A stretch of 30,680 nt of DNA from Holosporales bacterium (GCA_031257945.1 JAIRNU010000078.1:1-30680); one strand, 5' to 3'; counted from the stretch's first letter, positions 8,501-26,333 are shown. The notes: generated by a model from the letters alone, not told the origin. Made by a program: numbers and translations.

Positions 8501-11500
8501 TTAATTGCCATAAAACCACTCTAATCCCCCTGTTTTCAGCGCATAGGCAATCGTCTCGACAGCACGGTAGGCACGTATCGCATTCCCGGCATACCGCAAA
8601 TTTTTCGCAAAAGAAGCCCTCTTTCCACTTATCATACGCGCCAAGGATACTTTCAGATACATCAGCAAAAGTTTCTGATAGGCCCTTTATTTTTGCAAGG
8701 AAGTCCGATGGCGCGGTAAGCCTTTTTTCATATGTGTTTTGCATCAACCCGTGCAGTGCCGCGTAGAGGTCTTGATGTGATGACAACGTATTAGCGAAGG
8801 TTTGCACAGCTGTTGCGTACGTCATTTCGTCTGTGGCTAATGGTTTGTATACATTGAAAATAGCGGAATTTGGGAAGTATATAGTCAAAATGTCAGCTAT
8901 TTCGCTGGCTTTTACTATGATTTTCGAAATGCATTCGGCAGCTTGCTCCATATGGCATTCACCATTTATTTCGATATCCTCTATTTGCTTAATAACTGTC
9001 ACGATTCCGGGGGTAATCCCGTCCTTTTGTGTAAACAACGATATAAAGGAGTCAATTGGCAACGAGCATATATTGCTCCAATTAACTGTTACGTATTCAG
9101 AAATTCCATTTATTACTTCGGCTATATACGATGTGTAGTAATTATAATGATGCAATTGCTTTACTGTATCTAAATAGCAGTATCTGGCAAGAATTTCTTG
9201 CAAAGATTCTACACCTATTTGCGCGTTATCAATTAATTCATTCCAATTTTCTGGAATGGCGCCGGTTATACTGTCTTGCTCTGCCTCACAGTAAAAGCAA
9301 AATAACTCCATTTTCGTGGCAAGAATATCGGCTATTAATGTCTTTAACACTGGGAAAATAGGTTTTATTTGTGTCAAAAAGTTGAATAATTGGCGAACGG
9401 CAGGGAAGTGAAATTTCTTATGTTCCAATGCGGCGCATTGCCCGCAAATTGCGTCGTTAAATGCGGCGAGTTGCTTGAAACCTTCGCTTATTGCGCAAAA
9501 CAGCGTGGGGCAGCGGTATGTTGCAGGGTGAATAACGGAAGACTCCGCTGGGGGGTGAAACGCGGTTATTAGCTTATCGACAATGGTCTTTATTTTTAAT
9601 ACGTGTTCTATTTGCTCCACAGCTATGCAGTAACCATCGGATGTATCATCCCCATTGTTCTCTATATTTTCTTCTTGTTCTTGGGGGAATAATTCGTCGA
9701 TAAGCATCGATACCGCGGATACTGTTTCAAGCAGTAGCGCGCCAACAGTGGTTTCCCCTGAGGCAATGTCAATAATCTCATCGTAGCCTTTTATTTGTTC
9801 GGTCAAAATACTTGCCGAGTCCAATAATGTGAAAAGCGTGTATACAAATGTAGAGCAGCATGTCTTTTTTAATATAGTACTTTCTTGGATAAATAAATCT
9901 GGGATGCGTGTGATAGCCGTAAAGGCATCAGCTAAAAGGAACTCAATGCTATTTTTATTTTCGCGCATGCACTCTGTAGGGCTGTAATTAGCCTGCAGGG
10001 AATTTAATAGGTCAGTAAAAAGCGCAGCTAATGTTCCGAAGTACTCCGCGGATTCCGGGTGAAAGTCTTTGACTACGTAATTATCTGAAATATTAACGCT
10101 TTCTTGTATTAAATCTGCTAGTGTGTGCAAATCCGCATTAATCCTGCTGATTAATACTTCATTTGTAACTGTGGTGGTGGGGCCGGCGAAATCATCCGGT
10201 AAATATGTTGGAAGATCTTGGGCAAAAGCCCTCAGCGCCGCGTTTGTTTTTAAATAAATATTGTGCAGATTATCGTCGATATCAGTCAATCCGATGTATT
10301 CAGCGAAATTTATTACGCGGTGCGGGCACACATATTCTTCATTTAAAGAATTTATATTGCTTAATTTTGTGATAGATTGAGGAAAATTTGTTTCCAAAAT
10401 ACTAGTTATTTCTCGCATAGTATTTATAAACGTCGAATGTTCCTCTTCTTCCAAATTTTTGACGAATTGGTTTTTAGTAAATGCAATGGTTTTATTGATT
10501 GCCCTTATGCTGTTATCAATATCAAATAACTTATCGACTTTATGCGGGACGGCTGCGGTTTTTTGCAAAACATCTATAAATTCCGTGTGCGAGTTCAGGA
10601 GGCCCTCCATGGCATCTTTAAGCGGTATTGGATCAGGGACCATATCGTTTTCGCGGATATTATTGAGTATCTCGCGGAATAGTTGCGCCGCTTCTTCCCA
10701 TTTATAGTGAACAACTGTATGGTTAAATAAATCTGTAGTTTGGGCGATGTAAAAAGAATTATTGAGTGATTTTATTATTTCGATTAGCGAGGCATAATCT
10801 CTTTCAATTAGCTGGCCATTGTATGTTTGTGCAGGATAGCCAGCTTTTGGCGGCAAATATACCCCTAATGCCATAAGTTTATCCGTCAATTGTTCCACGC
10901 TATTACTTAAGATTTTATTAACAGAAGCAATAATTTGTGTTTTTTCTGGAAGTGAGGCCGCCGGCTCTGCGGGAACATCGCGGAGGATTTGCTTATACAT
11001 AAGTATTACATTATCGATAAAATTCGCGAACAATTGCACTGTTGTTTTTCTTGCGTCACTTGCGTCTATTCTTAAAAACAAATCCATCTGTTGCGCGAGC
11101 GTTTCAACTAATGCTACAAACTCGTGAAACTCTTTAGCGTATTTTTTGTAAAGCCTATCCTCCATTTGTTGAATAATTTTAAATAATTCTTCTTGAGTTT
11201 TACTTAAAGACGAAATAATCTCGTCGTAATAATATGTATTAGAATTGCAATTTTGGCACACTTTATTGGCAAAAACAGAACAAAAGCGCGCGACTGTATT
11301 CTGAAATTCTTCCACTCCGTAAAGCAACGTTACCAGGCTGTTTTGCAAATTTTGCTGGCTTTCGTAGATGTTTGACGCTTCGGCGTATTGCGTAAAAGCA
11401 TTCAGCTTACCAACAATATCGGCAGCTTTGGCATCAATTAAATCTAAGATTGCAGATACCTTTTGGCAAAAGAGCTCTTCAGAAACGATATGCGCAGTTC

Positions 11501-14500
11501 CGGGCTGCTTTTCCCCGATCAATAATAAGGCGTTACATAAGGCCTGCGTCGCACGGTATAAAAATCTGCATGTTTTTTTCATGTGCGGGGCGATGGCCGG
11601 CGCATTGCAGTGTGCATCTTCTTGTAATTGAATTTTGCCCAACTTATGGGAGGCAATATTTAAACTACATACGGCTTTATTTATATAATTAATCGCCTCA
11701 TCAATTTCTCCTTCTTCAAATATATGTTGATCTATATTTAAATACGGGATAGCGCCATCGAACCCAAACCCAAATTGCTCCAATAAGGAGAGGATGGAGT
11801 ACAGGTACTCATTGCGCGCTACACAACACGTTGGATGTCGCAAAAGGTCACAAATGGCGCTGATACCTGTGACCATGCTTTGGAACACTTGGTCAAGAGC
11901 GACGAAATGCTCTGCCGAGCAAAACCAATTCCAGTCTCCCTGAGCGTACGTACTCTGCATTCCTGAAAATGTTGCAATTATGGCGGATAATACGTCAAGT
12001 ATTTCCTGATCAAAGCACCGCTCATTTCTTTTGGTTCCATTCTCAGATTGAATAACGCCTTTCCACACGGTGATAGCACCGTCCACACTGCATAACGCAT
12101 TTTGCAAGGCGAAAAGGCTGTTTTCAAAGAATTGTACATCGCCGCGGTGTTTTTCTACTGGCTCGATAATAATCGGTTCTTTGTCGTTATCTTGTGTGTA
12201 TTGTTGTACTAAGTCGGTTATATTTTGTACAACAAGTCCTACTTTCAGAAGTTCAAGAAAAAGATTGCGGCGGTCATACTGAATATTTTTTATACTTTCT
12301 ATATGTGTTAATAATGTACTTAACTCGCTTTCGATTAAACTAAGACAAGCTTTTGTATTATTAATATTATTATTTCTAAACAAAAGTAATTTAATATCCG
12401 AAAAAATTGGGAACAAACTGATAATTTTTTTGACAGCATATGTAAGGTTCGAGTAAATCGTATTTTCATATTCAATAATTGCTGAGTTGGAACTTTGTAC
12501 CCCGTCCGCAACATTTGCCAGCAAATCCAGAGTATCTGCTTTAAAGGTCTCCGTCGGTCTTCCACGAATCGCACAAACTTCCCCATTTATCAGGAGGAAT
12601 TTTATGTACTCCATGGCGTCTATTTGTTCAGCCAAAACAGTATTAACCCCTTGCCACGAGGACTGTATGTTTTCATAAAAATCGACGTCTAAGTTGGCAA
12701 GGTTTTTTGCGAGGGCACCGGGTTGCACTTGGTACTCGTTTGGCGGGTCTTTATTTATTGTAAAAGTATTCTTTATGTCGTTCATTTCATCCATAATACG
12801 AAGTGAATCGGAAACAATTGCCTGTAGTATATCTAAAATATAATTATCTTTGTCTATTTCGGTAAAACAAATTTGGTAATTCCCAGATTCCATTCTTGGA
12901 ATTATTTTGTTGGAATTTTCACATATTTGTTGAAAGATTTCCTTTATATTATCGATATATCCCGAAATATTTTCTGAACATTCTGTATCCAAAGAATATT
13001 GTTGAGCCGCCAATATTATTTCTTCCATAACACTATTAATTCCCTCGTAGTTGCTGGAGATAGCGGTTATTTGATCAAGGTACTTTTGGCAGGCGTCGTT
13101 ATGCCCGTACGCTAGCCCTATTTTTTGCCAGGAATCAATAATGGCCTCAGACGGGAATAACGTTTCAGCAATTTCTTTTTCTAATGGCGTTACGTTGTAT
13201 GTGAAGCGTATCTTGGCCCAGCGGGACAGATGAAACGCCTTATAAAATATCTTTGAAACGATATCACTGGATACACCTGTTTCAATGGCATCTTGCAAAA
13301 TAGTATTAAACAAAGCGTCATCTTTTGTTTTATTGTGTTGCAGCGCTTCTACATCTTCTTTTATTTGCTGTTCTGAGAAGACGACTTGAGGTAATTGCTC
13401 AAACTCAACCTGTTTTTCAAGGTTCATATAGTGCAGGAAAGCTTTTTGGCTTTCGTCTATTTGTCGCAAAAATTGTACAAGTGCGGGGAAGCCACACTCC
13501 TGCGGTCCCTCACCGATTTGTTCAAAAAAATTGTTCCAAGTGTCAAACAGAGAAGTTATTACTGGCATTAATTCTGGCGCGTGAAGTATTTCCGTAATTT
13601 TGAAAAGTCCAATTAATTTTTGGATATTTAGGTTGTTTTGCAAAATATTATGCACCGCCTCAGACAACATCGAATATTCCAACGCCTTTATCGTGTCTTT
13701 TATCGTGCAAAAACTTGCTTCTAATGAATTAGTCCATTGCAGCATATCATTTACAGACGCGAATATTTGCACCGGGTTGCAACTTTCGCAAGTAATGTGC
13801 TTGCTCTTCAACAAAGCAAATGCCGTGGCCACAGTGTTAACCGCAGTTTGCAAATTATGTACTCGATCTTCGAATGCTTTCTTATATGGAATGGGAACAC
13901 CGATTGGCGGCGATACGTAGTAGGCTAACGTTTCGCAAATGTCGCGTATTTTGTGCAGAGTTTGTTCGATTTTGTACAAAAAAACTTCTTTTTTGGCGCA
14001 ATTATCGATATTTTCTACCGCTTTTAGGTTTAGCGATTGCGTTGCGGGGATCCCGTACACACCCTCTATACATAATAGGTTTTCATTTATAACTGTGGTG
14101 CTGTTTTTCACACTACTAAGCAATGCCGAATACGCCGCGTCTAAGCAATCGAAATCATCTACTTTGCCAGATAGCGCAGTGCTTATGTTAAGCAGCTCTG
14201 CCGTTATACAATCCAAGGCAAACAGGATGTCGGCGTCTTGCTGCGCAGCAAGTGTTTGCTGCGCCTTTGGAATAATTTTGGCAAAAGAGTGCGCACAAAA
14301 GTAGAGTTGAGTACGGATTTGATCAATAATCGTGGCGGTCTCCGTACAGCAAGTCGGATGCTTTAATTGTGTAGAAAAGTTATGTATTGCTTCTTGTATG
14401 TTTGCCGTATTATATAGTAAATTACTTATATTTTCTGATATTATTTGATTTATATTTATAAAATCGTAGTCGATTTTGTATGGAGCCAATAGCCATTCGT

Positions 14501-17500
14501 CGGACAGCATAGTAAATCTCTTCGCTATTTCCATCAAAGCATTGCGTATTCTAATGTCTGTAGATTCAGTGTGAATGTCCTCAAATATCGGGACTGTAGT
14601 ATTTGCAATAGCGTGTTCGCCGAAGGCATTCTGAGCCCAATCGGTAATCTCCTCTAAAATTTTTATGTGTTGTTTGCGAAGGGCCTCCGTTGCCTTTCCA
14701 TGCTTTTCAATGGCGATACTTTCGTGCAATATATCCGTATTGGTTTTAAGTTTTAATGAAGTTTTCGCAAAGTTTGTGAAGAAAGTTTTAGCTTGTGAAA
14801 GAGTGCTGTGTTGTATTAACTCAGTATAAATTGATAGTTGTTCTATTATTGCTGCAATTTCGTTGTGGAAATGCCCTTCGTAAGAGGGCTCTTTATGTTT
14901 TATAATGTTGAACACGCGGCTAATATTTAATTTTATGTCATTAATACCTCTCGCCAAAGAATAAAGTATAAGCGAACATTCATGAACATTTGGTATTTTG
15001 ACAAGGCTGGTGGCCAAAGCCACATCGCAAATTTGATTTTGCAAAAAATCGAGCGTCCCAATTAATGTCGATAATAAATCCACTATTTCTTCGTGGAAGC
15101 GAAGTATATCATGTCCGGCCAAAGTGTTCGCGAGCTCATTTATTGCATCTGCGATGTAAAGAGTATACTTATATATACGCGTTAGTGAGACGGCAACCTC
15201 AGGCGCTCTCGCGAGCGGATATACAGGAGGCGGATCGCTTTTTGTTATTGCGAGGACGTGGTCGGCGCACAGAGACATTGCGGTCACTATTCCCTGAAGT
15301 GCATTTGATAGGCCCGTAAGCGGCGGGTTATTCTTGTATTCTGACATAGTGTGCAGCTCTTGCTGCGTGGTTTCCAGGTCTGGGCCGCTACCAACCAAAT
15401 CTGCGAGTTCGTTTCTCACGGTATCAGCTGGCTCGCCAAAATCCAGATCCTCCACGAAAAACGGGCTCAGCGTTTTTGCGGCGGTTTCGACTTTTTTCGC
15501 GGCCTCTTCCAACAAAGTTACGCTATCTAAGATAATGCTTATGTCGTTTACCTGTGATAGCGCGATAAAGATATCCTCGAAATCGTCGGAAATTTTATTA
15601 ATTTCGTCTTTTATTTTTGCGGATTTCTCCTCAAAGGCCGCTTGATTATGCAGCAAAGATTGCGGTGCTGTTGCTGTGGCAAAGAGCGCGGCCAGGCCCT
15701 TCAGCCTCAAAGCAATAGCTTGAATTTGGCTTAGATTTTCAGGCGTTATAACGTGCTTATGGCTTATAATAGCCTCGTTTATTATGGCAGCATCAACGTG
15801 GTGTGCGGCTAGGGCTTCGATTATGCGGTCCCAGTAATGCGCGGCAATACTAGGCGTATACGGGAGAATTTCGACAAAGCTACCGGATACGAAGTTAAAC
15901 ATTTCGAAGATTTCTGCTACTTTTTGCAAATTAATGCTCTTTTGGGCGCTATGAGCTGGGTGATTTAGCGCAGAAAATAACGGGGCGCTCATTGTGTCCA
16001 AAAAAGCCGCAAACTCCAATAAGGCGTCATTCATGTCCGTATCCGATTGAAAAGCCAAGGCCGTCAGCTGCGAAATAAATTCCGAGCAAGACAACACGCC
16101 GCTGCAAATTCGGCCTAACGCCGCGCCATCCTTTTTATCGCAGCAAAATATTGCTAGAGAGTCCTTCAGGAAAATAAACGTGACTTTGACATTGCTAACA
16201 GCGTCAATAGCTTTTTCGAAAAAGTCATTAAAGTCGTCGGCGTTAGCGTCTGCCCGATCAATACATTGTTGGCAAAATGTTCCAAAAGGTGATGCTTTAT
16301 CAATAAGATTGTCTAAAAATGCAACTACAGAATCCAAAGTACTTATAATGTTATCGATAGCGCTAAAACTTGAAGAATTAAATGGCGTTGTTAAGCCGTA
16401 ACTTTGCACAAAATGCACTGTGTTCTTTATTTCTAAATAAATTGCATTAATGGCATTTACTATATTATTGTTCACCTCTTTAACTAAAAGGCAAAATACA
16501 TCAGCTTGGGTAAGTTCTTCTACTTGATGTACCTGTGGAACTTCTTCATCAGATATAGTCGCATTGGTTCCGTTAAGTACGGCGACAATGCTGCGCAATG
16601 CAGTGTTAATATAATCGGATTTGCATTTGCCCGTTGGACTAATCGGTTCATCGTAAATTGTTTGAATATAATCGAAGTATTGTTCTAAAGATTCTTTATC
16701 AAAAGCAGCAGCAATATTGTTTAATATAGTATTAACATCTAGCGTATTGTGTAGGGGATTTGTGATAATATAATTTATATTATTAGCAGTATTTGTGAGC
16801 GCAATTGCAATGTCCTGAAGAGTTAGTACTAAGGAGGCACAACAAAGTGATGCATCATAACAATCGTGTATTTCCATTACTTGCTGATAAAGTAAAAATA
16901 ACGCTTGATGAAGGGATGTGTAGTTTTCAATCCAATCCTCGTAAGTAACGATACCATTATTGTGTGCATCGATTATTGTGTATATATTTTCTAAAAATGG
17001 GGTAAGTGCCTGTGATTCGATGTTTTCGATTTGCTCGGCGATAGCTTTGAGGCTAGACGTGATTTCCCCATTTCTAACAACTTTTGCTGCATTATTTTTT
17101 AATTCCGTCACAACAGAGCTCAGGGCGCTGGCATATTCCTCAAAAATAAGGGGAAGCAGCGCGATATCCTGGCAAAGTACGGCCTCACTAAAAAGCGGTG
17201 GATCAGCAATCAATGCCGTGTTATCTTCCTCCCATTCCCCATAAAACGAATCCGTTACGACATCTTTTAGTTCTGGTTCGAACGTAACTGCGGCGTCGAA
17301 GATTTGCGCATATGCTAAAAGTGCGGCGTGGTAATCCTCGGAATCGTCTCCTATTTCTATACTTTTAAAATCGGCAATAAATGTTGCAATTTTATCTGAT
17401 ATATACTTTACGGCGTTATTTACTTTCTTGTTGTTGAAATCATCGATATTTGCTGAAGAATTTTGTATTGCTGTTGTTATTTGATCGCATGATGATATTT

Positions 17501-20500
17501 GCTTTTTTAGTGTATTCAGGAACGTCCTAAAAGAAAAAGATATTCCCTGCCAGTAGCGTACTTCAAGATCAGCCATTATTGGCTCGATTACTTCAACGAT
17601 ATTGTCCATTTCGTTGCCAATATCTCGCAGGATATATTTATCAAGAGAATCAGTTCTTGCGCAGAATTGTATTTGACTATTAGAAAGGTCGTGTAGCGCA
17701 GCTTTCACCGCTAACAATGCATCCCTTAATGACGCGAACGAATCTAATACTTCTTTAGAGTATGTTTGGTCAATATCCATGTTTTGTCGAATGTGTTGTT
17801 CGAGTATCGCAAAGTAACCATCCGAAGGATTACTTAATTCCCGCATATTTTGTAAAATTTTCGTAAGATAAACCGCAATTTTTTCATGCTGGACCGCGTG
17901 CAGGGCATAGCTACTATAATCTGACGGCAAAGACCAAGCCGTTGCCTCGATAATATCGCTGCAAGATGCGATGGCATTATAACAATCAGGGAGACTGTCG
18001 TTTATATCCGAAAGCATTGGGGCAATGCTTTCCGCTCTATCCCGGAAAAGGCCGGCGGGAGCATGCTGAAAAGCGGAATCTATAGATGAGATATAGCTAC
18101 CGATATTAGTTATTTCCTCCGAAATTTTGGTTATTTGCTCGGCGATTAATTGCTTTTGTGGCGATGGCGTCGCACCAATATCATCATCGGTTTCTGGTAA
18201 CGATGCCACGCACACGTTAATTTTTAATAAAATATTTCGTACAGCGGTGGCAACGGTTTCTCCGCATGGCGGGTTGTTGTTGTTTGCAATAACTTGCCCT
18301 GCCAAAGAAACAATATCTTTTAATATTTTCTCAATATTTATATATACACCGTTGAATATATCAGTCTCTTGTATGGCATTAATAATATATTGTACAAATA
18401 TCCCACTAGTAATTATTAAATCAGAAACTATAGGATGTGGCGCTAATTCTGTTTGCGCAAACCAATGGCACAGTTTAGAAAAATTTGAAAGTATGTCCTC
18501 GCTCACCTCTATAATTTTGGCCAAATTGATTTCGTATTGCTCTTGCGTAATTTGCGCTAAAAAGCTTCTGTTTGTTACTTTTTCTACGTCAAAAAGGGGT
18601 TCTTTCGTCCAAATTGCGGCTTTTATTAACGTCGTAATTTTTTGTATAGAGGAAATAACATTGCCGTTAACTTTTTGCGCAACGATTTTTTTGATGCTGT
18701 CAGCGAGGCTATAAACAAATTTATCAATTTGTGGAGTATTCGTTGGGTCAATAATATCGTTGTCTAATAAAAATTGCAGTACTTGGGCGAGTTCTTCTAA
18801 TGGTCCAAGTAATTTATACTGTGCCTCTACTTTCTTTTTAATTTTAAATTCTACATAAGTTTCAGCTAACAAACCCAGTGCATCAGGCTTTATCGCTTGT
18901 AATAAATCCTGTTGGTGTGCGTGCAATGGTTTCTCGCAAAAAACGCACTGGGAAAGGTGCTCCAAACCGTCGCTGTTTTGCAAAAAATCTTGCAACTTTG
19001 TTTTCATTATATGTATGCGTGTGTGGGCCTCGCTTAACTGCTGATGTATTTCTTCCGAATAAATTAGGTATTCGCCTTTCCAATAAATCGCAAGGTCATT
19101 AATCGATTCAAAAATTGCATTGAGTTTTGCAGTTATACTTGTTAATGCAAATGTTACTCTTTCGCTAGCGGGGATTTTATCGTAGTCCTTTTTGAACGGC
19201 TCTATATCAATGTTGTAACACAGCAATATAGTTCTGATCGCATTGCAAAGGTCCTCTGTTTCACTTTCTATTTGGTCAATACTTTGTTCAACAGTAGGCA
19301 GGGACAGTGCATCTGGTATGGTTTTTAAAATACTGTTTATACTAGATATATACTCGTTAATAGGTAGCGCTGGAATAGCTCCGTTCTTTTGTAGATTTAC
19401 TATTTGCTTAAAATATATTGCTAAATTAGTAATATTTTCCTCTATATTAATTATTTTTGCAGTATATATACGGCACGCCTCATTATCCAAAAGCTTTTGC
19501 ACAAAAAGGCCGATGTTCTGCCGTATTTGCCCGCAAATTTCGCGAATTCCCCCCAGAATGGCAGCTTCTTCAGCTTTGCGGAATGCGTTGCACTCAGGGC
19601 ACTTCGCATAAAGTATAGTTGAGTCTTTCATTATATCATTAATGAAAGAGGAAATGTGCTGTAGAGAGTCTACTGCATTTATACTGTAAAGATTTGTATT
19701 TATATTAGCGAAAATTGTGGCGATATGCTGTTCAAGTAAAACACAAATACTTTCAAGAATTTCTTTAATTAAATATAAATCCCCCATTCGTTGAGTACAG
19801 GAAAATTTGAATGGAGGGATAGTATTAGCCGCTTCAGCCGTCTCAGCAACCTCAGCTGTTCTAATTAAACGGTCCAAAAATTCGCTTATTCCAGGAAGAT
19901 CTAACGGGGCGTGGCCTTGGGGTTGTAGTAATAGCTGGTTCTCTAACAGCGCCATTACCGTTTCATCCGCCGCGGCCCGCAGTATATCTTCAAAGCGCAA
20001 TAATTTTTCCAATATATTGTGTGTATATAGCGCAGTATTCGCGCAGCATTTATCGCTAATACTTTCGGCGATTTGCTTTATGGCAAAGGAAAGTTCTTTG
20101 GTAATATCGTGCAACTCCTGCAAAGCAAGTGTTTCTTGTATCGAAATGCTTTGGTTTGTACATTTCTGGCATGAGTACTTGGATGTAATGTCCTCTAAAA
20201 AGGGCAGGCTATTATCCGCGCCTAAGAAACTATTCGCGATATTTACAATTAAGTTTTTGTATTCCGTGTTTACCGCGGCGTCGAAATCTTTTTCTAGAAT
20301 ATCTGCAATATCGTACAGTTGTGCCGTTATCCCCTTTAATAATACGGTATACTTTCGCAAGTATACGTCTTTGTAATCCTCAAGCGGCACACTGAAATAA
20401 TCGAAATCGAAATATGGTGCCGCGAAGTCTATATCGTCGTATTTTTGGGCGATAGCGTAGATCGCAGCACCAACGGCGGCAATTTTCTCTTCCGTTGGTC

Positions 20501-23500
20501 GGGTGCGCAGTGTGTCGAGCAAAGTATTAAGACAGCCAAAAGACTTCGCCAACACTTCTTTTGCGGACTTTGTACCTAAGTTCGATTTTATTAAACTTAA
20601 GGCATACGATATTGTATTTGTGACTTGAAGCGCCCGCGCGAAAGACATTTTTTGTTGATTTTCGCAAGTATCCGGAAGTCGAGCGTTTTTATCCGTATCA
20701 TCCGATATTTCGTTTAAAATTGCGATTAATTGTGGGGAGTTAATATTACTTTCCGCACATAGTATTTCGTGATCATATATCGTCCCCGCCAATGAATGCA
20801 ATACGGACGATGCCTCAGAAAGGGCTCCGCGAATGCCGGCGTTCTTATGATTCTGTCCGCTAATAAATGCTGTATAGTACGATTGTTTTAACGCACCGCT
20901 TAATGTACTTAAACAATGGTACAAGTTCAGGCATTCGTTGCAACTCTCCTCTATACTTTCAAACACGTCAGGGGGAGCAAGCGCAATCGCCCAAGCCCAT
21001 ATATCCTCTATCCACGCCAGCACGTCCCCCATTTCTTGCTGAAGACTTGCGTTTTCTACATCTGTACTAAACGCCTCAAATAAACGCGCATTGTGAAGGA
21101 GTATTCTTGCCGTTTGTACAATACACCTTTCCACGGTCGCCCCAGCATCCAACAAATTTGCCTCTTGGATTTGCTGGGCAATTGCTTTAGCTATGTTAGC
21201 GCACCGCCGGAAGATATTCTTCTTTGCCGTTGTGCAATGGCGCTCCTCTCGAGGATACAAAGCGTCATACAGGTAGAGGGCTTGCGCGGCCATTCCCTTA
21301 ATCTTTTCCTGAATTTCCCTTATTATAAGTATTTGTTCTTGCGAATAGCTATTCACCGGGCCCTCTATACCAATTTCTATATTAGCTATTCCGTAAAGTT
21401 CCGCACTTATGCGTTGGATCGCCTCCCGCTCCTCCATCGAAAAATTGTAATTATTTATAATAGTATTATTGCAAATATGTACAATTTTATCCCCGATATT
21501 TGTTATTTGTTGTAGTATCCTTCTCAAATATACATTATCTGTATTCTCGTTTTGTGGTATTGACGGCGGAGCATGAGGGACAGGATCAACATCGTAGCAA
21601 TCCTTCCAATAATTAAGTTCTTTAAAAATATCATCCAAGTTTATCCCCGTTTCGCTACTTACCCCTGCCTCAAGAGCTCTTTTTATATTTTCAATACCAG
21701 ATAAAATATAAGAAATATTAATGCTTTGCTCCGATTGTATTAACCGATCAACTATATTCTCTATTTTGTACAATACCGCCGTTATATCATATAGTCTTTG
21801 CCTTATGAATGGTGGGGTTTGCGACTGCTCTGCCAGTACTTTCAACAAAGTCTCCCAATATGTTGAAGTATCAATTATATCGCTACGAAACTGCTCCGGA
21901 TTTCTTATTTCTAATTGTATGCCGCTGTGGTAATTTAGCATATATTTAAAATTCGTAAAGTAATCGGCGTACTCTTTCCAAAAAATTTTGTAAATATTGG
22001 CCTTTTCGGCCAGACCTGCGATCCCCTGACAATCAAGCAGTTCGAGCCCCTCCGAAAATGAAGTCACAATATACTGTACAATCGAATTATACAAAGATGC
22101 GGCTTGTATTAAATTTGGCGCAATAGTTTGTAGATTTTCAATACTTGGGGGAATTGGGACGAACGCGCCACCCTCTCCAATAATTTCGCGTAAATCCATC
22201 CAAAGTTGTGCGATTCTCGCATTGCTCAGCCATGCCTCCGGCTTTTGCAAAAAATTTGAGAGAACCCCGTGCCACCGGTCAAAAATATCCAGGGCCCCAG
22301 CCTTATCTGGATTATTGTAAATTAAATCCCCGACAGCCTGCGTTGTGCAAAGCAAAATTTGCGGAAGCCTTATGCACGCCTCTACCTGATAATAATTTTC
22401 GAAAGAATCCCAAGTCGCCTGCAAAAAATCGAAAGCATCCCGTAAGCCGCTATAAGCGGTTTGCAGTGTGACGGACAAAATATCGCTTCCACTGTTATTT
22501 TCGCAAGACGCCGCTGCATTGCGCAAGACATCCATTACGCCTTCCGCGAAATCGCATATTACTTGCGCCTTAAAGTCTATTGGCTTCCAAAGGTCCGACG
22601 GCGGGGCCGTTGCATTATACGCAAAAGTATTAATATTAGCGGATATTTTCTGAATATACTGCATAACTTTATGACGGATAACTTCTACTAGTTCGTGCGC
22701 ATTTATTTCACTATATCGCAAAATATCTGTAACTTTTTTGCTGCGCCTGTAGTCCCCCCAAACGGCCCCCAATACTTCGTTTACAGTAGAAAATATATCA
22801 CTATAATTATCATCCACTTTTATTTTTTGTGTTATTCCTTGGACAACGCTGTTATAGGAAGTAAATATTTTGTCATGTATATCGGGTAACTCGTGCACAA
22901 CCCGCTTCGTAATGGCTTCGATATTGGCAACAATATCCAAAAACGGCAAAGCCAAAGCCGCGGCTGCCTCGCAATCCTTGTAAGCATTAATATTTTTATC
23001 TACCGTAAGTATTGCTGTTTGTATTTCTCGCAAAAGGTATATCTTTTTCGCCAAAAAGTCTTTCTTAATTTCAATATTTTTTATTGGGCTTTGTAGCAAA
23101 TCCACATACTGTTCCGCCGCATCAATTACATTTTGCATTCCAGAACAAAACGTTTTGAAAAACGAAGAGAGGGCGGGCAGATCGTCTTTGGCAATACTGT
23201 TAAAAAAACCAATATTCCCCTCTAGTATTTTGACATCATTTAAAATCCCGTTTATTAACATAATAATTTGCGGGAATATATTTTCTAATGTAAGCCCTTC
23301 CACGGAAATATCTGCGAAAGTATCTATACCATTTTCCAAAATATCCCATAAATTTTTAACAAGTACCGTAAATCCTGCGAAAAAATCACTGGCCAAATCT
23401 ACGTGCGTATTTAATTCTCTTATTACAAGTAATAATTGGTTATACTCGTTCTGCGAATTATATAATGGCGCCGAACACAAGGCGTGTATTTCATTTGATA

Positions 23501-24878
23501 ATAAATACAAATACTTATACATATTTAAAAATTGTTCGGTGGGCTCCTCTTCTGTCCCCCCAACCTTTGCTATCTCTGCTGCTATAAGACCTTCAATGAT
23601 GCCTAATTTTTCCAAAATAGCATTGACGACGTCTGTTTCTGAGATCGCAAGGCCAGACAAAAATTGGTTGAAATACTCCTGTATGCTATCTGTATCTGCA
23701 GGCGATGATAGTGCTGCCATTGCGTCAGACGGCGGCGTGGTGGGGATAAGCAGGCCGTATATTGATGTATAAAAGTCCGCAGCGTCTTTCGTCCCGGCTT
23801 TGGTTTTGTATGTGGCCATTAGGGTATTTATCGCGTCAAATTCGTCTTTAATATTATTGTAATTAGTTGTAGAGATCCTTATAATAGCACTACTGGACGC
23901 TAAAAAAACCAATTGGTCCCACAAAGAACCACTAGCGCTAGCAGAAGTGGTACTACTCCCGAAAATAGTTTTCCAGCACTCATCGCTTGCCAAAATATTC
24001 TTTGTCGCTGCCACTATATCAGCAGTTATCCCAGTCCCGTCCTTATATTCATTTACTATCTTGTTAATAAGCACCGGGCTGAACCCCCTAGAGCCAACCT
24101 GCGTGATTGCATACAAAAGGGACCCTAATTCCGGACTTCCCGCCGCCTTTAATCGTGCGCAGATAGAGCCTGTTGTGCTTGCCGTGTCACCTGGCGTACC
24201 AAGAACAACTGAGTCAGTAATTTTAATTGGCGTTGCCCTAATAGTCGCCAGCACTTTGTTAATGAGACTGTGGTAGGTGTAAACGTCACTGTACATCTCA
24301 TTCACGTTGTTGAGTGCTCCAAGGTACCCCGCAGTGGTATTTGGAAACATTTTGTTATTAAGTACTGCATGATTAAGTAAAATTGATGTATTTACTCCCT
24401 GCGTGATCCCAAAAGTAGCAGCGTATGCTAAGCTTACTCCGGCAGAGAGGATGGTTTCCAAAGATGGGGCGGCTCCATTACTCCATCCTGTTAAATCAAA
24501 GTTGCTTGATCCATTGATATTTGACAACAGATTATATATCTTTTTGCTTTTACCAAATGCAGAAAATGTTCCCTCGTCATCTTTAATATCAGTTATGTTG
24601 CCGTTTGATACCCCTACTCTCACGAGTGTTGTCGTGCTCGGAGATTTACTCCATAAACCTGCAATATCAGTTTGAAGCGAGCGCGAACCTAAAGCGGTAG
24701 AGCTTCCTAAATATGTGGCACAAGTACCAATTGCTGGATTACTACCACTTTGTATTCGCTCCATAAAGGTTGATAAATCGGTGCTCCAGCACCCTATCAT
24801 TATCCACAAAAGGAAAACGAATGGACGCAGCGCAGCAAAAAAACATTGCTTAAAAAACAATTTTATTGTTAAAAGCAC
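5505..24878 (-). CDS. Giant (6457 aa) predicted alpha-helical protein with cysteine-anchored degenerate repeats; possibly exported
   Basis: Uninterrupted 19.4-kb ORF (GTG start). N-terminus with basic residues and a hydrophobic stretch ending MIGC. Amphipathic helical pattern throughout, with recurring CxxC...CC motifs. No named domain recognised. Confidence 0.93.
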   Translation of the reverse strand: MLLTIKLFFKQCFFAALRPFVFLLWIMIGCWSTDLSTFMERIQSGSNPAIGTCATYLGSSTALGSRSLQTDIAGLWSKSPSTTTLVRVGVSNGNITDIKDDEGTFSAFGKSKKIYNLLSNINGSSNFDLTGWSNGAAPSLETILSAGVSLAYAATFGITQGVNTSILLNHAVLNNKMFPNTTAGYLGALNNVNEMYSDVYTYHSLINKVLATIRATPIKITDSVVLGTPGDTASTTGSICARLKAAGSPELGSLLYAITQVGSRGFSPVLINKIVNEYKDGTGITADIVAATKNILASDECWKTIFGSSTTSASASGSLWDQLVFLASSSAIIRISTTNYNNIKDEFDAINTLMATYKTKAGTKDAADFYTSIYGLLIPTTPPSDAMAALSSPADTDSIQEYFNQFLSGLAISETDVVNAILEKLGIIEGLIAAEIAKVGGTEEEPTEQFLNMYKYLYLLSNEIHALCSAPLYNSQNEYNQLLLVIRELNTHVDLASDFFAGFTVLVKNLWDILENGIDTFADISVEGLTLENIFPQIIMLINGILNDVKILEGNIGFFNSIAKDDLPALSSFFKTFCSGMQNVIDAAEQYVDLLQSPIKNIEIKKDFLAKKIYLLREIQTAILTVDKNINAYKDCEAAAALALPFLDIVANIEAITKRVVHELPDIHDKIFTSYNSVVQGITQKIKVDDNYSDIFSTVNEVLGAVWGDYRRSKKVTDILRYSEINAHELVEVIRHKVMQYIQKISANINTFAYNATAPPSDLWKPIDFKAQVICDFAEGVMDVLRNAAASCENNSGSDILSVTLQTAYSGLRDAFDFLQATWDSFENYYQVEACIRLPQILLCTTQAVGDLIYNNPDKAGALDIFDRWHGVLSNFLQKPEAWLSNARIAQLWMDLREIIGEGGAFVPIPPSIENLQTIAPNLIQAASLYNSIVQYIVTSFSEGLELLDCQGIAGLAEKANIYKIFWKEYADYFTNFKYMLNYHSGIQLEIRNPEQFRSDIIDTSTYWETLLKVLAEQSQTPPFIRQRLYDITAVLYKIENIVDRLIQSEQSINISYILSGIENIKRALEAGVSSETGINLDDIFKELNYWKDCYDVDPVPHAPPSIPQNENTDNVYLRRILQQITNIGDKIVHICNNTIINNYNFSMEEREAIQRISAELYGIANIEIGIEGPVNSYSQEQILIIREIQEKIKGMAAQALYLYDALYPREERHCTTAKKNIFRRCANIAKAIAQQIQEANLLDAGATVERCIVQTARILLHNARLFEAFSTDVENASLQQEMGDVLAWIEDIWAWAIALAPPDVFESIEESCNECLNLYHCLSTLSGALKQSYYTAFISGQNHKNAGIRGALSEASSVLHSLAGTIYDHEILCAESNINSPQLIAILNEISDDTDKNARLPDTCENQQKMSFARALQVTNTISYALSLIKSNLGTKSAKEVLAKSFGCLNTLLDTLRTRPTEEKIAAVGAAIYAIAQKYDDIDFAAPYFDFDYFSVPLEDYKDVYLRKYTVLLKGITAQLYDIADILEKDFDAAVNTEYKNLIVNIANSFLGADNSLPFLEDITSKYSCQKCTNQSISIQETLALQELHDITKELSFAIKQIAESISDKCCANTALYTHNILEKLLRFEDILRAAADETVMALLENQLLLQPQGHAPLDLPGISEFLDRLIRTAEVAETAEAANTIPPFKFSCTQRMGDLYLIKEILESICVLLEQHIATIFANINTNLYSINAVDSLQHISSFINDIMKDSTILYAKCPECNAFRKAEEAAILGGIREICGQIRQNIGLFVQKLLDNEACRIYTAKIINIEENITNLAIYFKQIVNLQKNGAIPALPINEYISSINSILKTIPDALSLPTVEQSIDQIESETEDLCNAIRTILLCYNIDIEPFKKDYDKIPASERVTFALTSITAKLNAIFESINDLAIYWKGEYLIYSEEIHQQLSEAHTRIHIMKTKLQDFLQNSDGLEHLSQCVFCEKPLHAHQQDLLQAIKPDALGLLAETYVEFKIKKKVEAQYKLLGPLEELAQVLQFLLDNDIIDPTNTPQIDKFVYSLADSIKKIVAQKVNGNVISSIQKITTLIKAAIWTKEPLFDVEKVTNRSFLAQITQEQYEINLAKIIEVSEDILSNFSKLCHWFAQTELAPHPIVSDLIITSGIFVQYIINAIQETDIFNGVYINIEKILKDIVSLAGQVIANNNNPPCGETVATAVRNILLKINVCVASLPETDDDIGATPSPQKQLIAEQITKISEEITNIGSYISSIDSAFQHAPAGLFRDRAESIAPMLSDINDSLPDCYNAIASCSDIIEATAWSLPSDYSSYALHAVQHEKIAVYLTKILQNMRELSNPSDGYFAILEQHIRQNMDIDQTYSKEVLDSFASLRDALLAVKAALHDLSNSQIQFCARTDSLDKYILRDIGNEMDNIVEVIEPIMADLEVRYWQGISFSFRTFLNTLKKQISSCDQITTAIQNSSANIDDFNNKKVNNAVKYISDKIATFIADFKSIEIGDDSEDYHAALLAYAQIFDAAVTFEPELKDVVTDSFYGEWEEDNTALIADPPLFSEAVLCQDIALLPLIFEEYASALSSVVTELKNNAAKVVRNGEITSSLKAIAEQIENIESQALTPFLENIYTIIDAHNNGIVTYEDWIENYTSLHQALFLLYQQVMEIHDCYDASLCCASLVLTLQDIAIALTNTANNINYIITNPLHNTLDVNTILNNIAAAFDKESLEQYFDYIQTIYDEPISPTGKCKSDYINTALRSIVAVLNGTNATISDEEVPQVHQVEELTQADVFCLLVKEVNNNIVNAINAIYLEIKNTVHFVQSYGLTTPFNSSSFSAIDNIISTLDSVVAFLDNLIDKASPFGTFCQQCIDRADANADDFNDFFEKAIDAVSNVKVTFIFLKDSLAIFCCDKKDGAALGRICSGVLSCSEFISQLTALAFQSDTDMNDALLEFAAFLDTMSAPLFSALNHPAHSAQKSINLQKVAEIFEMFNFVSGSFVEILPYTPSIAAHYWDRIIEALAAHHVDAAIINEAIISHKHVITPENLSQIQAIALRLKGLAALFATATAPQSLLHNQAAFEEKSAKIKDEINKISDDFEDIFIALSQVNDISIILDSVTLLEEAAKKVETAAKTLSPFFVEDLDFGEPADTVRNELADLVGSGPDLETTQQELHTMSEYKNNPPLTGLSNALQGIVTAMSLCADHVLAITKSDPPPVYPLARAPEVAVSLTRIYKYTLYIADAINELANTLAGHDILRFHEEIVDLLSTLIGTLDFLQNQICDVALATSLVKIPNVHECSLILYSLARGINDIKLNISRVFNIIKHKEPSYEGHFHNEIAAIIEQLSIYTELIQHSTLSQAKTFFTNFAKTSLKLKTNTDILHESIAIEKHGKATEALRKQHIKILEEITDWAQNAFGEHAIANTTVPIFEDIHTESTDIRIRNALMEIAKRFTMLSDEWLLAPYKIDYDFININQIISENISNLLYNTANIQEAIHNFSTQLKHPTCCTETATIIDQIRTQLYFCAHSFAKIIPKAQQTLAAQQDADILFALDCITAELLNISTALSGKVDDFDCLDAAYSALLSSVKNSTTVINENLLCIEGVYGIPATQSLNLKAVENIDNCAKKEVFLYKIEQTLHKIRDICETLAYYVSPPIGVPIPYKKAFEDRVHNLQTAVNTVATAFALLKSKHITCESCNPVQIFASVNDMLQWTNSLEASFCTIKDTIKALEYSMLSEAVHNILQNNLNIQKLIGLFKITEILHAPELMPVITSLFDTWNNFFEQIGEGPQECGFPALVQFLRQIDESQKAFLHYMNLEKQVEFEQLPQVVFSEQQIKEDVEALQHNKTKDDALFNTILQDAIETGVSSDIVSKIFYKAFHLSRWAKIRFTYNVTPLEKEIAETLFPSEAIIDSWQKIGLAYGHNDACQKYLDQITAISSNYEGINSVMEEIILAAQQYSLDTECSENISGYIDNIKEIFQQICENSNKIIPRMESGNYQICFTEIDKDNYILDILQAIVSDSLRIMDEMNDIKNTFTINKDPPNEYQVQPGALAKNLANLDVDFYENIQSSWQGVNTVLAEQIDAMEYIKFLLINGEVCAIRGRPTETFKADTLDLLANVADGVQSSNSAIIEYENTIYSNLTYAVKKIISLFPIFSDIKLLLFRNNNINNTKACLSLIESELSTLLTHIESIKNIQYDRRNLFLELLKVGLVVQNITDLVQQYTQDNDKEPIIIEPVEKHRGDVQFFENSLFALQNALCSVDGAITVWKGVIQSENGTKRNERCFDQEILDVLSAIIATFSGMQSTYAQGDWNWFCSAEHFVALDQVFQSMVTGISAICDLLRHPTCCVARNEYLYSILSLLEQFGFGFDGAIPYLNIDQHIFEEGEIDEAINYINKAVCSLNIASHKLGKIQLQEDAHCNAPAIAPHMKKTCRFLYRATQALCNALLLIGEKQPGTAHIVSEELFCQKVSAILDLIDAKAADIVGKLNAFTQYAEASNIYESQQNLQNSLVTLLYGVEEFQNTVARFCSVFANKVCQNCNSNTYYYDEIISSLSKTQEELFKIIQQMEDRLYKKYAKEFHEFVALVETLAQQMDLFLRIDASDARKTTVQLFANFIDNVILMYKQILRDVPAEPAASLPEKTQIIASVNKILSNSVEQLTDKLMALGVYLPPKAGYPAQTYNGQLIERDYASLIEIIKSLNNSFYIAQTTDLFNHTVVHYKWEEAAQLFREILNNIRENDMVPDPIPLKDAMEGLLNSHTEFIDVLQKTAAVPHKVDKLFDIDNSIRAINKTIAFTKNQFVKNLEEEEHSTFINTMREITSILETNFPQSITKLSNINSLNEEYVCPHRVINFAEYIGLTDIDDNLHNIYLKTNAALRAFAQDLPTYLPDDFAGPTTTVTNEVLISRINADLHTLADLIQESVNISDNYVVKDFHPESAEYFGTLAALFTDLLNSLQANYSPTECMRENKNSIEFLLADAFTAITRIPDLFIQESTILKKTCCSTFVYTLFTLLDSASILTEQIKGYDEIIDIASGETTVGALLLETVSAVSMLIDELFPQEQEENIENNGDDTSDGYCIAVEQIEHVLKIKTIVDKLITAFHPPAESSVIHPATYRCPTLFCAISEGFKQLAAFNDAICGQCAALEHKKFHFPAVRQLFNFLTQIKPIFPVLKTLIADILATKMELFCFYCEAEQDSITGAIPENWNELIDNAQIGVESLQEILARYCYLDTVKQLHHYNYYTSYIAEVINGISEYVTVNWSNICSLPIDSFISLFTQKDGITPGIVTVIKQIEDIEINGECHMEQAAECISKIIVKASEIADILTIYFPNSAIFNVYKPLATDEMTYATAVQTFANTLSSHQDLYAALHGLMQNTYEKRLTAPSDFLAKIKGLSETFADVSESILGAYDKWKEGFFCEKFAVCRECDTCLPCCRDDCLCAENRGIRVVLWQLKDMYQKLADEFLEISTRIGEDCCLSSFTHLFQAQEQLAAAQMFIGEILNHEAQNNSGLIINIADIITKNINKITTDLITLEDARNHVPQTEEYCRIKYINEQIITLAQTLQVFKDDCEELLINTSIPKPSLQQQEPFDFSCQEFPWFLNKISYIIDDLSLSFETAAPTIACSLQNFEQTSIALNALILSCQNIYNTLITFILPADKELLCANCVKKDFNASMQNIANAILRLIRSCIAVKNDALKEFCCHGLYTKLQKTAWIFNALSSIVENVNNISIQPADIIYGTHTSNILEISNSIELLNSLFVPLFSKYNSLPAASFEVFCQSSELISYIDSINEVLQNNIYLSAANFFAEFGIPPALPQEEDIKEAISYEQILSSICSSHANINTVLLNFVAKVSSIEINGSHSDTLTAISSIISALNNTSLNIQNFAQMMKEKSICYNRILFDFHFEEELIQGIYSGNNSIVNTFIKLLNIFSRSQGIKKANSVSAILEHLRKFTKAVEVMASLDDPAQLFEEQLVSIPFTDILTIWRQYTNNIAELLDSTQEAPPAASLLDEAFLGLAKETLEFALLFDHIPEDYWNGNDTPQYQNAAALYKTNLNSMREQITVLAEVFIWLRDEVAFVRPAFSEETYTQAIHISNNINGIYDSLLNIADDNVMYSGATFTALAEEVHFLKRKFDAIVSVLHRPPCDLKLISAINSLSSTIRLLADNITNDNDCTKEQYQVFIIKFLQSIVRLKQFTEELLAGDWHSCVSDQLAERLANTPFDEMLAATLERFIPGNPNDSANPDAQSPPPTTLSSAIDGLSLSIISLIKGVAKWAPNIHPTHELLDIKLSALPDFDTVDSEGNCIPLLPLYMFETDVNIATISSKLDDLQQIEEGCEICTHAKVIDSFRTLHSIIKHLLNNFTLLFYFIQTIDKQIFSADLLDLVGKMTTTEDGQNVINLLYRTKFDKHGLPIMDDRGKSLTEKDTFLQQTKIVSNFGSLLDRALFTLRY

Positions 24879-24947
24879 TTTTACTATTAACTAAAACATC
24901 AGTACATATAAAAATGTATAAGTATTATATTTAAAAATAGTAAAGTT

Positions 24948-24976
24948 TTGCCATATTCCGCCAATTTATCTAACTT
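24948..24976 (+). promoter_or_regulatory. Candidate sigma70 promoter for the hcp-like pair
   Basis: TTGCCA-N17-TAACTT about 90 nt upstream of ATG 25069, in the AT-rich divergent region shared with the giant gene. Confidence 0.4.
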
Positions 24977-25068
24977 TTTTGTTTTTCCTCTAGAGCACTG
25001 CCAGTTTTTTATGACATTATTAGTAGGGAAGGGGGGAGTGATCGCGCTACCGATACAGTAGGCCTGGT

Positions 25069-25647
25069 ATGGACAATCCTATTAATTTGCGGATAGGGGG
25101 AATTTCATTCAAAGTCCCGATTTCGCGCAGCGGAAATGGCCTCCTATCGGCAACAGTATCGAGAACCCCAGAGTGGGTGATTATGTTCGATGGTGGGTTA
25201 ACCGCCAGCACGTTAGAAGAATACCCAGATTTCGTGGTATTACTTGGCTTTTTTTCAGAACAAAGCCGGTATGTGTCGGGCAATGTTAACGGCTCCATAT
25301 TCACTTCTGGAAGTGTTCAAGGCGGAGAATACATATTCATTCTACAAAACGGAGAGCACGGTCCAAAGCTTGAACAACAAATGTATAGCGGCAAAAACGT
25401 CCCGTGCGTCAGACTTATACGGTTAGGATGGTCAGAAGGCGCTTTATCTGTTCTGCAGACAATTACACTTACGGTAGTGCGTATTACTCGTTTCATGCAG
25501 AACATCCAATATATTGTGATTGTTGTACAGGCTGGTGCCCGGACTAACGATATTTCAGATTTTAACCAGGCTGATGGTGCTTGTGCGGGTCACAAGATAA
25601 GTACAGTAAATTATTCGGAAAATAAACTTGAGTTCGAGAGTCAATGA
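25069..25647 (+). CDS. hcp: Hcp-like (T6SS inner tube, TssD family) protein 1 with N-terminal extension
   Basis: Colinear by eye with P. aeruginosa Hcp1: GSVQ~GKVN, GPKLEQQMYSGKNVP~TPNLMMACSSGKHYP, TITLTVVRIT~IITLKEVLVS, FNQADGACAG~PQKADGAKDG, VNYSEN~WNIRQN. Confidence 0.75.
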   Translation: MDNPINLRIGGISFKVPISRSGNGLLSATVSRTPEWVIMFDGGLTASTLEEYPDFVVLLGFFSEQSRYVSGNVNGSIFTSGSVQGGEYIFILQNGEHGPKLEQQMYSGKNVPCVRLIRLGWSEGALSVLQTITLTVVRITRFMQNIQYIVIVVQAGARTNDISDFNQADGACAGHKISTVNYSENKLEFESQ

Positions 25648-26270
25648 TACTTAGTGATAACAAATCACAAGCCCAGGGGAACGGCCCGTACGAAATCGCT
25701 AATGTCCCAGGAATGGGGGATTTGAAGGTAATAGTTGTAAGCGAATCAACAAGCCAATTCTTCAACAATCCAAACGGGTCGAAATCGCCCTGGTGGATGG
25801 TTAGCATGAAAGCAGATAACAAAGAGGTGCTATCGTCTACTGTTACTGCCGCGCCGTATAAAGATTACACGGAATTATTTGGGTTTTACATAGAATCGTA
25901 CGTCGTTTTTTCATCAACAATTGCTAACAAACTGTTTGTATCGTCGATAATACATGAAGATTGTATTATCGTTATTCCAAATGCCGGTTATGTGGCGGAC
26001 CTGGAGCAAAAAATGCACTCTGGGGTATTGTTTGGCATGATTACGATTGTGTGCCTTGGGTGGATTAAGGGGACGTTGCAAGTGTACCATCGTATAACGT
26101 TTACTAATTCTTTTCTGGTTTCAATTATTCCTGACCTAGACCGCGCATTTGTTCGCTTTAGGGTTGTAAAGAAGAACCATACTTTTATTCCATTTTCTCA
26201 GGCCGGCGTAAAAGCGGGGCAGTCTATGTGCCTTATCGATTTGACGACTGATACGACGTCAGCTGGGTAG
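25644..26270 (+). CDS. hcp: Hcp-like protein 2, diverged paralog of the upstream gene
   Basis: ATGA overlap with the upstream gene. Shared motifs: LEQKMHSG/LEQQMYSG, LGWIKGTL/LGWSEGAL, ITFT/ITLT, LFGF/LLGF, FSQAGVKAGQ/FNQADGACAGH. Confidence 0.7.
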   Translation: MILSDNKSQAQGNGPYEIANVPGMGDLKVIVVSESTSQFFNNPNGSKSPWWMVSMKADNKEVLSSTVTAAPYKDYTELFGFYIESYVVFSSTIANKLFVSSIIHEDCIIVIPNAGYVADLEQKMHSGVLFGMITIVCLGWIKGTLQVYHRITFTNSFLVSIIPDLDRAFVRFRVVKKNHTFIPFSQAGVKAGQSMCLIDLTTDTTSAG

Positions 26271-26333
26271 TTTTGCCATCCTTTTTTCTTATTTGATATG
26301 ATCCGGTAGCGCAACGGGGTAGGGCAGGGCGGA

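Follow-up and report, generated by a model that had tools for sequence, protein, structure and literature searches.

We found that two overlapping open reading frames, hcpA (protein P0001) and hcpB (protein P0002), encode proteins that are almost certainly tube-type members of the Hcp family. Both lie in a 30,680-nt stretch of DNA (hereafter the window) that forms contig C66 of a 1.04-Mb genome assembled in 110 contigs and 84% complete; the DNA probably comes from a termite gut metagenome, as an uncultured MAG of an intracellular bacterium attributed to Holosporales. In this order, the T6SS is regarded as the foremost candidate for a machine acting on the host. In a 2025 review of the order, the T6SS of Holosporineae is described as non-standard, with the gene for the inner tube apparently lacking (PMC11909080; the labels TssD and TssJ are exchanged there, yet the inner tube is named as the missing component). 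We show that this tube gene does exist, in the form of a diverged Hcp subfamily of ~190 aa with a predicted extra N-terminal hairpin, and that it was reported as missing because this extended subfamily escapes the Pfam model PF05638 (T6SS_HCP).

The two genes lie in tandem on the plus strand, hcpA at 25069..25647 (192 aa; accessory Hcp paralog of the P0001 type) and hcpB at 25644..26270 (208 aa; accessory Hcp paralog of the P0002 type), and an ATGA at 25644..25647, read from the sequence, joins the hcpA stop to the hcpB start, as the first-pass annotation had described. The hcpA start at ATG 25069 is the first possible one past an in-frame TGA at 25039-25041, and ATG 25644 is the sole hcpB start that retains the N-terminal residues conserved among orthologs. 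The proteins are paralogs (24% identity over 160 aa, E = 5e-14, BLASTP), with the alignment beginning at PEWVI in P0001 and PWWMV in P0002. The LGWxxGxL motif that they had been said to share is real, reading LGWSEGAL in one paralog and LGWIKGTL in the other, and its residues L138, G139, W140, G143 and L145 were invariant in alignment A1. We infer that hcpA and hcpB are co-transcribed and, in the source genome, translationally coupled through the ATGA. The earlier proposal of coupled synthesis therefore holds for this genome and not as a general trait, as the overlap was seen in the source genome only and orthologous pairs are spaced by 6-93 nt.

The homology of both proteins to Hcp is established, and it was shown by structure and by a family profile. 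The AF2 model of P0001, folded with 17 orthologs (pLDDT 78, pTM 0.72), superposed on Hcp 4tv4_B with Z = 18.6 and an rmsd of 2.1 Å over 140/143 residues, and on T6SS Hcp chains overall with Z = 16-18.6 (VIA-align). P0002 was folded with five sequences only, giving a model of moderate confidence (pLDDT 63) that aligned to Hcp 4hkh_A with Z = 13.6 and an rmsd of 3.6 Å over 130 residues (VIA-align), and Hcp or Hcp-fusion chains made up 49 of the 50 Foldseek matches listed for it in the PDB (best E = 2e-5). Tube proteins of phages and of eCIS, among them Afp1, reached just Z = 7-10 against the P0001 and P0002 models. Structure prediction, which the first-pass annotation had named as a check on its claim of deeply diverged Hcp paralogs, thus returned an Hcp fold for both, and the claim is also borne out by a profile of 111 family sequences that matched solved Hcps at E = 5.5e-8. 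Like canonical T6SS-i Hcp/TssD (PDB 4tv4, 4hkh, 1y12, 5mxn), the modelled proteins form a beta-barrel across the whole domain.

Standard sequence models recovered none of this. PF05638, for which the gathering score is 23.5 bits and against which a search had been proposed, gave no match at E <= 10 for any of the seven paralogs of the source genome, P0001 and P0002 among them, nor any match elsewhere in that genome, and NCBIfam gave none for P0001 or P0002; a sub-threshold match of P0002 to AtTam9 (E = 0.034), the sole match among Pfam and NCBIfam, was dismissed as chance. In a word-indexed homolog search, P0001 retrieved only itself and P0002 three relatives, and no relatives were confirmed when the genome contigs were searched with alignment A1. 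An exhaustive profile search yielded 174 cluster representatives, mostly of 180-210 aa. Among the 111 family members, 25 matched PF05638 weakly (best E = 3.6e-6). In its present form, the Pfam model fails to detect the extended Hcp family. Homologs of the pair are annotated 'hypothetical protein', as had been anticipated for copies this divergent, and a profile built from the extended family would correct T6SS annotation in such endosymbionts. Canonical T6SS-i Hcps differ in this respect from the seven copies of the source genome, all of which lack a PF05638 match, and also in length, at ~160 aa compared to ~190 aa for the family, with 31-47 additional N-terminal residues in the latter that are predicted to form a hairpin.

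When the structures are aligned, residue 2 of Hcp falls on residue 32 in P0001 and on residue 48 in P0002. The hcpA extension (residues 1-31; 25069..25161, plus strand) is conserved among orthologs and is predicted to form a beta-hairpin (5-9/12-16) and, after it, a linker of low confidence. That of hcpB (residues 1-47; 25644..25784, plus strand) has predicted strands at 16-20 and 28-32 and a short helix, with a pLDDT of 55-73, and contains PYE..VPG...K.. and GSKSPWWM motifs that are conserved among orthologs. The hairpins of both extensions are predicted with moderate confidence. The N-terminal extensions proposed in the first-pass annotation are thus real, with lengths of 31 and 47 aa that fall slightly under the ~35-50 aa claimed, though that description needs revision. 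The extensions had been called unrelated, but the family HMM aligns across both of them, and a Y-x-I...PG...K-I hairpin-like pattern precedes the (S/T)PEW(M/V) strand in all seven paralogs, with P0001 the most degenerate. They are also no peculiarity of the two genes, being clade-wide and present on the core tube gene too. Judged from sequence, the hcpA and hcpB extensions are a homologous hairpin common to the whole family, core hcp included. We weighed two other interpretations and rejected both. The extension is not merely a diverged Hcp strand 1, which maps to PEWVI / PWWMV, with strand 2 mapping to LLGFF / ELFGF (structural alignments and profile alignment to 7fcf), and it is not a signal peptide, as it is without a hydrophobic stretch.

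With a TssC query, we also retrieved 80 loci spanning many phyla and compared the gene lying directly 3' of tssC in each. Most MAGs labelled Holosporales, Holosporaceae, Paracaedibacteraceae or Caedibacter encoded an Hcp of 187-202 aa after tssC, as did several MAGs labelled just Alphaproteobacteria or Pseudomonadota, and in the closest of these MAGs its alignment to the family HMM starts at position 10. In most of the remaining taxa, which are mainly free-living, the post-tssC Hcp had 158-168 aa and aligned from HMM position 50-60. As far as these sequences reach, an extended core tube gene is characteristic of the clade. Across the same 80 loci, TssC identity between phyla was 57-72%.

All T6SS core genes sought in the source genome are present and are distributed over several contigs, with TssB and TssC on C15, TssA on C65, TssF and TssG on C57, TssK and TssL on C76, TssE on C16, TssM on C88 and VgrG on C64. 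The family HMM found seven members in this genome, of which hcpA and hcpB are just two: a core hcp at C15:7005-7568, directly after tssB-tssC and thus at the tssB-tssC-hcp position that it shares with canonical T6SS-i Hcp; the hcpA/hcpB pair on C66; a second tandem pair on C18; and single copies on C2 and C100. A split T6SS layout with a tssB-tssC-hcp block has been described in Bodocaedibacteraceae, Paracaedibacteraceae and Caedimonadaceae (PMC8163844). The 'Hcp-like superfamily' gene of Ca. Bodocaedibacter vickermanii occurs in such a layout and at the same position as the C15 copy, although a single Hcp-like gene is reported in that work (PMC8163844), compared with seven copies here. The accessory copies are dispersed among housekeeping genes and not inside a T6SS locus, and hcpA/hcpB are not beside T6SS genes in the source genome; on one metagenome contig (L001), tssA lies ~600 bp downstream of the orthologous pair, with one small gene between. 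The first-pass annotation had raised the possibility that the pair forms the tube itself. That role fits better with the core hcp directly after tssB-tssC on C15, which is far better conserved; we infer that the bulk tube is made of the C15 copy, and hcpA/hcpB probably have an accessory rather than a bulk role.

The distribution of the family was assessed in 301 sampled genomes of the class, 33 of which carried it, almost all of them small (0.5-2.1 Mb) and mostly with a single copy. The GTDB order is represented by 10 genomes from one family, each with 4-8 copies. A maximum-likelihood tree of 63 copies resolved seven strongly supported orthogroups that are older than the genera, including a P0001-type orthogroup (9 rows, support 100/99) and a P0002-type orthogroup (7 rows, support 100/98). 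The P0001-type and P0002-type sequences are separate old clades, ruling out a recent tandem duplication as the origin of the pair. The A-then-B order is retained in five other genera (G001, G002, G003, G004 and G008) and on L001; the exceptions are G006, where A occurs without B downstream, and G007, where A and B are on different contigs. The order of the second pair (C18 type) is retained in about nine genomes. Identity between genera was 83-91% for the core copy, 38-44% for A and 35-48% for B, within a range of 33-55% for accessory copies overall, and both members of each pair evolve at a near-equal rate. This rate pattern is that of one bulk structural Hcp accompanied by putative fast-evolving, specialised ones.

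We lean, with some reserve, towards explaining hcpA/hcpB as an accessory ('minor') pair of co-translated Hcps that join in one mixed ring and serve as an effector carrier. The tandem order, kept from genus to genus, favours a mixed ring. Prediction of an hcpA-hcpB heterodimer from orthogroup alignments scored 0.81, 0.82 and 0.81 in three runs, compared to 0.00 for the best control, and this mark was attained by 58/80 solved complexes and 2/110 mismatched pairs. The runs had >= 59% of contacts in common, with a partner pLDDT of >= 75. Within the predicted interface, the P0001 strand 138-147 pairs with the P0002 strand 78-87, which resembles the lateral contact expected of neighbours in an Hcp ring and is a strand-to-strand subunit contact of the kind found in canonical T6SS-i Hcp. 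Residues 16 and 29-32 of the P0002 extension take part in the interface as well, and the model thus suggests that the hcpB extension reaches onto the adjacent subunit. The heterodimer prediction supports, and does not show, binding of A to B, as Hcp ring contacts are abundant among solved structures and a pass may merely reflect likeness to them. Heteromeric assembly, one of the options raised in the first-pass annotation, is therefore plausible given the gene order across genera, the prediction (0.81 vs 0.00) and the Bacteroidales precedent described below, with the qualification that the complex prediction covers a heterodimer alone and is blind to the difference between hetero- and homo-rings. 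On balance, we give a mixed A/B ring an even chance or slightly better, and its use as an effector carrier a little less than that.

Under this favoured account, the C15 copy would form the tube within the TssBC sheath, and A and B, co-transcribed and in this genome coupled in translation, would assemble into a mixed hexameric ring by strand-to-strand contacts between neighbours, with the N-terminal hairpin of hcpB clamping onto hcpA. The ring would join the tube at low stoichiometry, bearing a cognate effector, and contraction of the sheath would deliver that effector to the eukaryotic host. If so, the accessory Hcps could be used as baits for their effectors.

A comparable division of labour is known from Bacteroidales, where the major sHcp assembles into homohexamers and the recognition of effectors falls to heterohexamers of Hcp1-Hcp2 or Hcp2-Hcp3 (PMC13213661, PMC13035841). 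As with the minor Hcps of the B. fragilis T6SS-iii, one conserved major copy is accompanied here by several diverged minor paralogs and minor copies occur in syntenic pairs, and by analogy we propose a mixed effector-carrier ring. The systems differ in T6SS class and phylum, and our models resemble 9vne_B, from a PDB entry for these minor Hcps that was among the matches of both, less closely (Z = 8.9-10.6) than they do T6SS-i Hcps. The copies in our source genome are moreover scattered through a reduced endosymbiont genome instead of lying within a T6SS locus, the pair is without an adjacent effector-immunity cassette, the target is likely a eukaryotic host, and the heteromer is a predicted one. 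Fixed-order heterologous pairs would extend the recently discovered 'minor Hcp heterohexamer' principle, with the heteromer predicted in this case, to an unrelated T6SS class that is probably directed at eukaryotes. Both the T6SS Hcp and minor Hcp heteromers are already known. Relative to PMC8163844 and PMC11909080, what appears to be new is the N-terminally extended Hcp subfamily that evades PF05638, the expansion of this subfamily, which comprises seven conserved orthogroups in ~1 Mb genomes of a termite-gut family, and the presence of two Hcp pairs in fixed order outside Bacteroidota.

Alternatively, A and B could each form separate homohexamers, as independent specialised Hcps with their own effector or tube variant, with the tandem a relic of an old duplication kept under shared regulation. 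The complex prediction would probably pass for homo-pairs too, and most characterised Hcps are homohexamers. The Bacteroidales sHcp is homohexameric as well (PMC13213661), two accessory copies of the source genome stand alone (C2 and C100), and the G006 and G007 genomes show that A can occur without an adjacent B or apart from it. Independent rings nevertheless leave unexplained why A precedes B at six loci across genera despite scrambled flanks, and why a second, independent pair is similarly conserved. The nearly equal evolutionary rates of the partners, the ATGA overlap in the source genome and the placement of A and B in different deep clades, with no recent tandem duplication, also speak against this alternative, which we consider unlikely, if still a substantial contender.

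The first-pass annotation had also raised the option of a tube protein paired with a tube initiator. Afp1 (Pvc1) is the tube of eCIS, and Afp5 (Pvc5) is the tube initiator. On this model, hcpA/hcpB would form a specialised single tube layer similar to Afp5/Pvc5, either as an initiator ring seated on VgrG or as a terminal one. The occurrence of several distinct tube-fold paralogs beside one dominant conserved copy is in line with such a role, as is the fold held in common with eCIS tube proteins (Z = 9-10), and two tube-fold paralogs are encoded together in both cases. The resemblance to T6SS Hcp is far stronger, however, with P0001 reaching Z = 17-18.6 compared to 9.6 for Afp1, and with Z = 12-18.6 for T6SS-i Hcp chains compared to 7.2-10.0 for Afp/PVC chains across the comparisons, and 7.6-9.6 for the Afp1/Afp5 (Pvc1/Pvc5) type. 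The window is without eCIS genes, among them those for sheath, baseplate and AAA+ proteins, and the source genome has a T6SS. Seven paralogs also exceed the need of one adaptor layer. Assembly of the T6SS tube is generally taken to begin at the gp27-like part of VgrG, and no T6SS tube initiator other than VgrG is known. The Afp1/Afp5 option is thus unsupported, and a single specialised layer is highly improbable. That the pair has lost its T6SS function, and now encodes secreted cargo, a host-interacting protein or decaying paralogs, is in keeping with its fast evolution (35-48% identity between genera) and with the absence of T6SS genes from the window, but is extremely improbable given that the A and B reading frames are intact in every genome carrying them, that the old orthogroups of the family have been retained in genomes of 0.8-1.3 Mb, and that the fold and ring-interface strands are preserved in the models.

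Returning to the mixed-ring account, we examined the surroundings of the pair for a partner or cargo. Window genes recognised by Pfam encode FabD, RF2, FtsQ, L25, a BspA-type LRR protein and a hydrolase, and the other window ORFs gave no significant Pfam match; in the 30,680 nt, Pfam identified no T6SS genes beside the pair and no eCIS families, and no recognisable effector or immunity domain among the neighbours flanking the pair. A stem at 26296-26305 / 26330-26339 with a T-run, 3' of hcpB, was evaluated as a terminator and is not claimed (-20 kcal/mol, z-score just -1.08). Upstream, a divergent intergenic region of 190 bp (24879..25068, no strand assigned) presumably contains the promoter of the pair, with no sigma-70-like site detected in it by a consensus scan. 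On the other side of this region, and head-to-head with the pair, lies a giant ORF of 6457 aa (5505..24878, minus strand) to which Pfam assigned no family, a neighbour and possible functional partner.

A 7584-aa open frame is likewise head-to-head with the orthologous pair in G002, which belongs to a different genus and to another branch of the core-Hcp tree, and has weak similarity to the giant ORF (33% identity, confined to a short segment, E = 1e-6). The giant ORF and the pair are on separate contigs in G003 and G008. When the flanks of orthologous pairs were compared with the window proteins by BLASTP, no common neighbours were found at E = 1e-5. We treat the giant ORF as cargo of the pair as a lead and not as a finding. 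The fullest reading built on it, that Holosporales-type endosymbionts assemble their T6SS tube from an invariable complement of seven specialised Hcp rings, each clamped N-terminally and two being obligate heterohexamers, with the A/B ring as dedicated loader of a terminal module of a giant protein (6,457-7,600 aa), is improbable as a whole, but if true would connect a giant host-directed protein with T6SS export. The giant ORF, head-to-head with the pair in two genera, is its sole recurring neighbour, and the other flanks are not conserved.

The hcpA-hcpB pair lies beside a giant open reading frame of 6457 amino acids on the minus strand (positions 5505-24878 of the window), which is without a Pfam family. 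Its homologs were weak, with 23-33% identity, and sat in open frames of 7,300-7,700 amino acids in five other genomes of the family, distributed among four genera; in G002, the family's one complete genome, the giant-frame homolog and the orthologous Hcp pair were arranged head-to-head. On the metagenome contig L001, the orthologous Hcp pair was followed some 600 bp downstream by a block of tssA (ImpA_N), a small gene and corC, in that order (L001:8075-9304), and the same block was present in the window's genome on a separate 3.7-kb contig (C65:282-1547). Between hcpB and the convergent ftsQ, we also assessed an inverted repeat with 10-bp arms and a 24-nt loop followed by TTTT (window 26296-26343), which resembles a terminator but scored no better than shuffled sequence (z -1.08), so that we do not call it one.

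Two further diverged Hcp paralogs, belonging to two other orthogroups, formed a second tandem pair on the minus strand of contig C18 of the window's genome (1768-2947). This pair was flanked by a gene for a BspA-type leucine-rich-repeat protein on one side and priA on the other, and about nine of the family's genomes kept its gene order. The pair's counterpart in G002 adjoins a broken third Hcp copy, the frame of which is split by stop codons (G002:C1:163084-163666). BspA-type leucine-rich-repeat proteins (PF13306) were found at window 28422-29423 (plus strand), C15:1850-3577 and C18:199-1413, two of them near Hcp-family genes. Contig C15 of the window's genome also carries a T4-type large terminase gene (Terminase_6N/6C; 14862-16598, minus strand), possibly left over from a prophage or a gene transfer agent, at a distance of about 7 kb from tssB-tssC-hcp.

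Two single accessory Hcp paralogs of the window's genome were located at C100:9339-10130 and C2:15610-16191. Proteins of the C100 type (223-263 amino acids) have an insertion after strand 1, and the member from the window's genome also has a C-terminal tail. The extended Hcp family included metagenomic members of roughly twice the normal length, namely P0047 (370 amino acids), P0103 (391), P0104 (437) and P0108 (330), which may represent either two Hcps fused in tandem or an Hcp that carries an effector extension; in P0047, two stretches matched the family profile.
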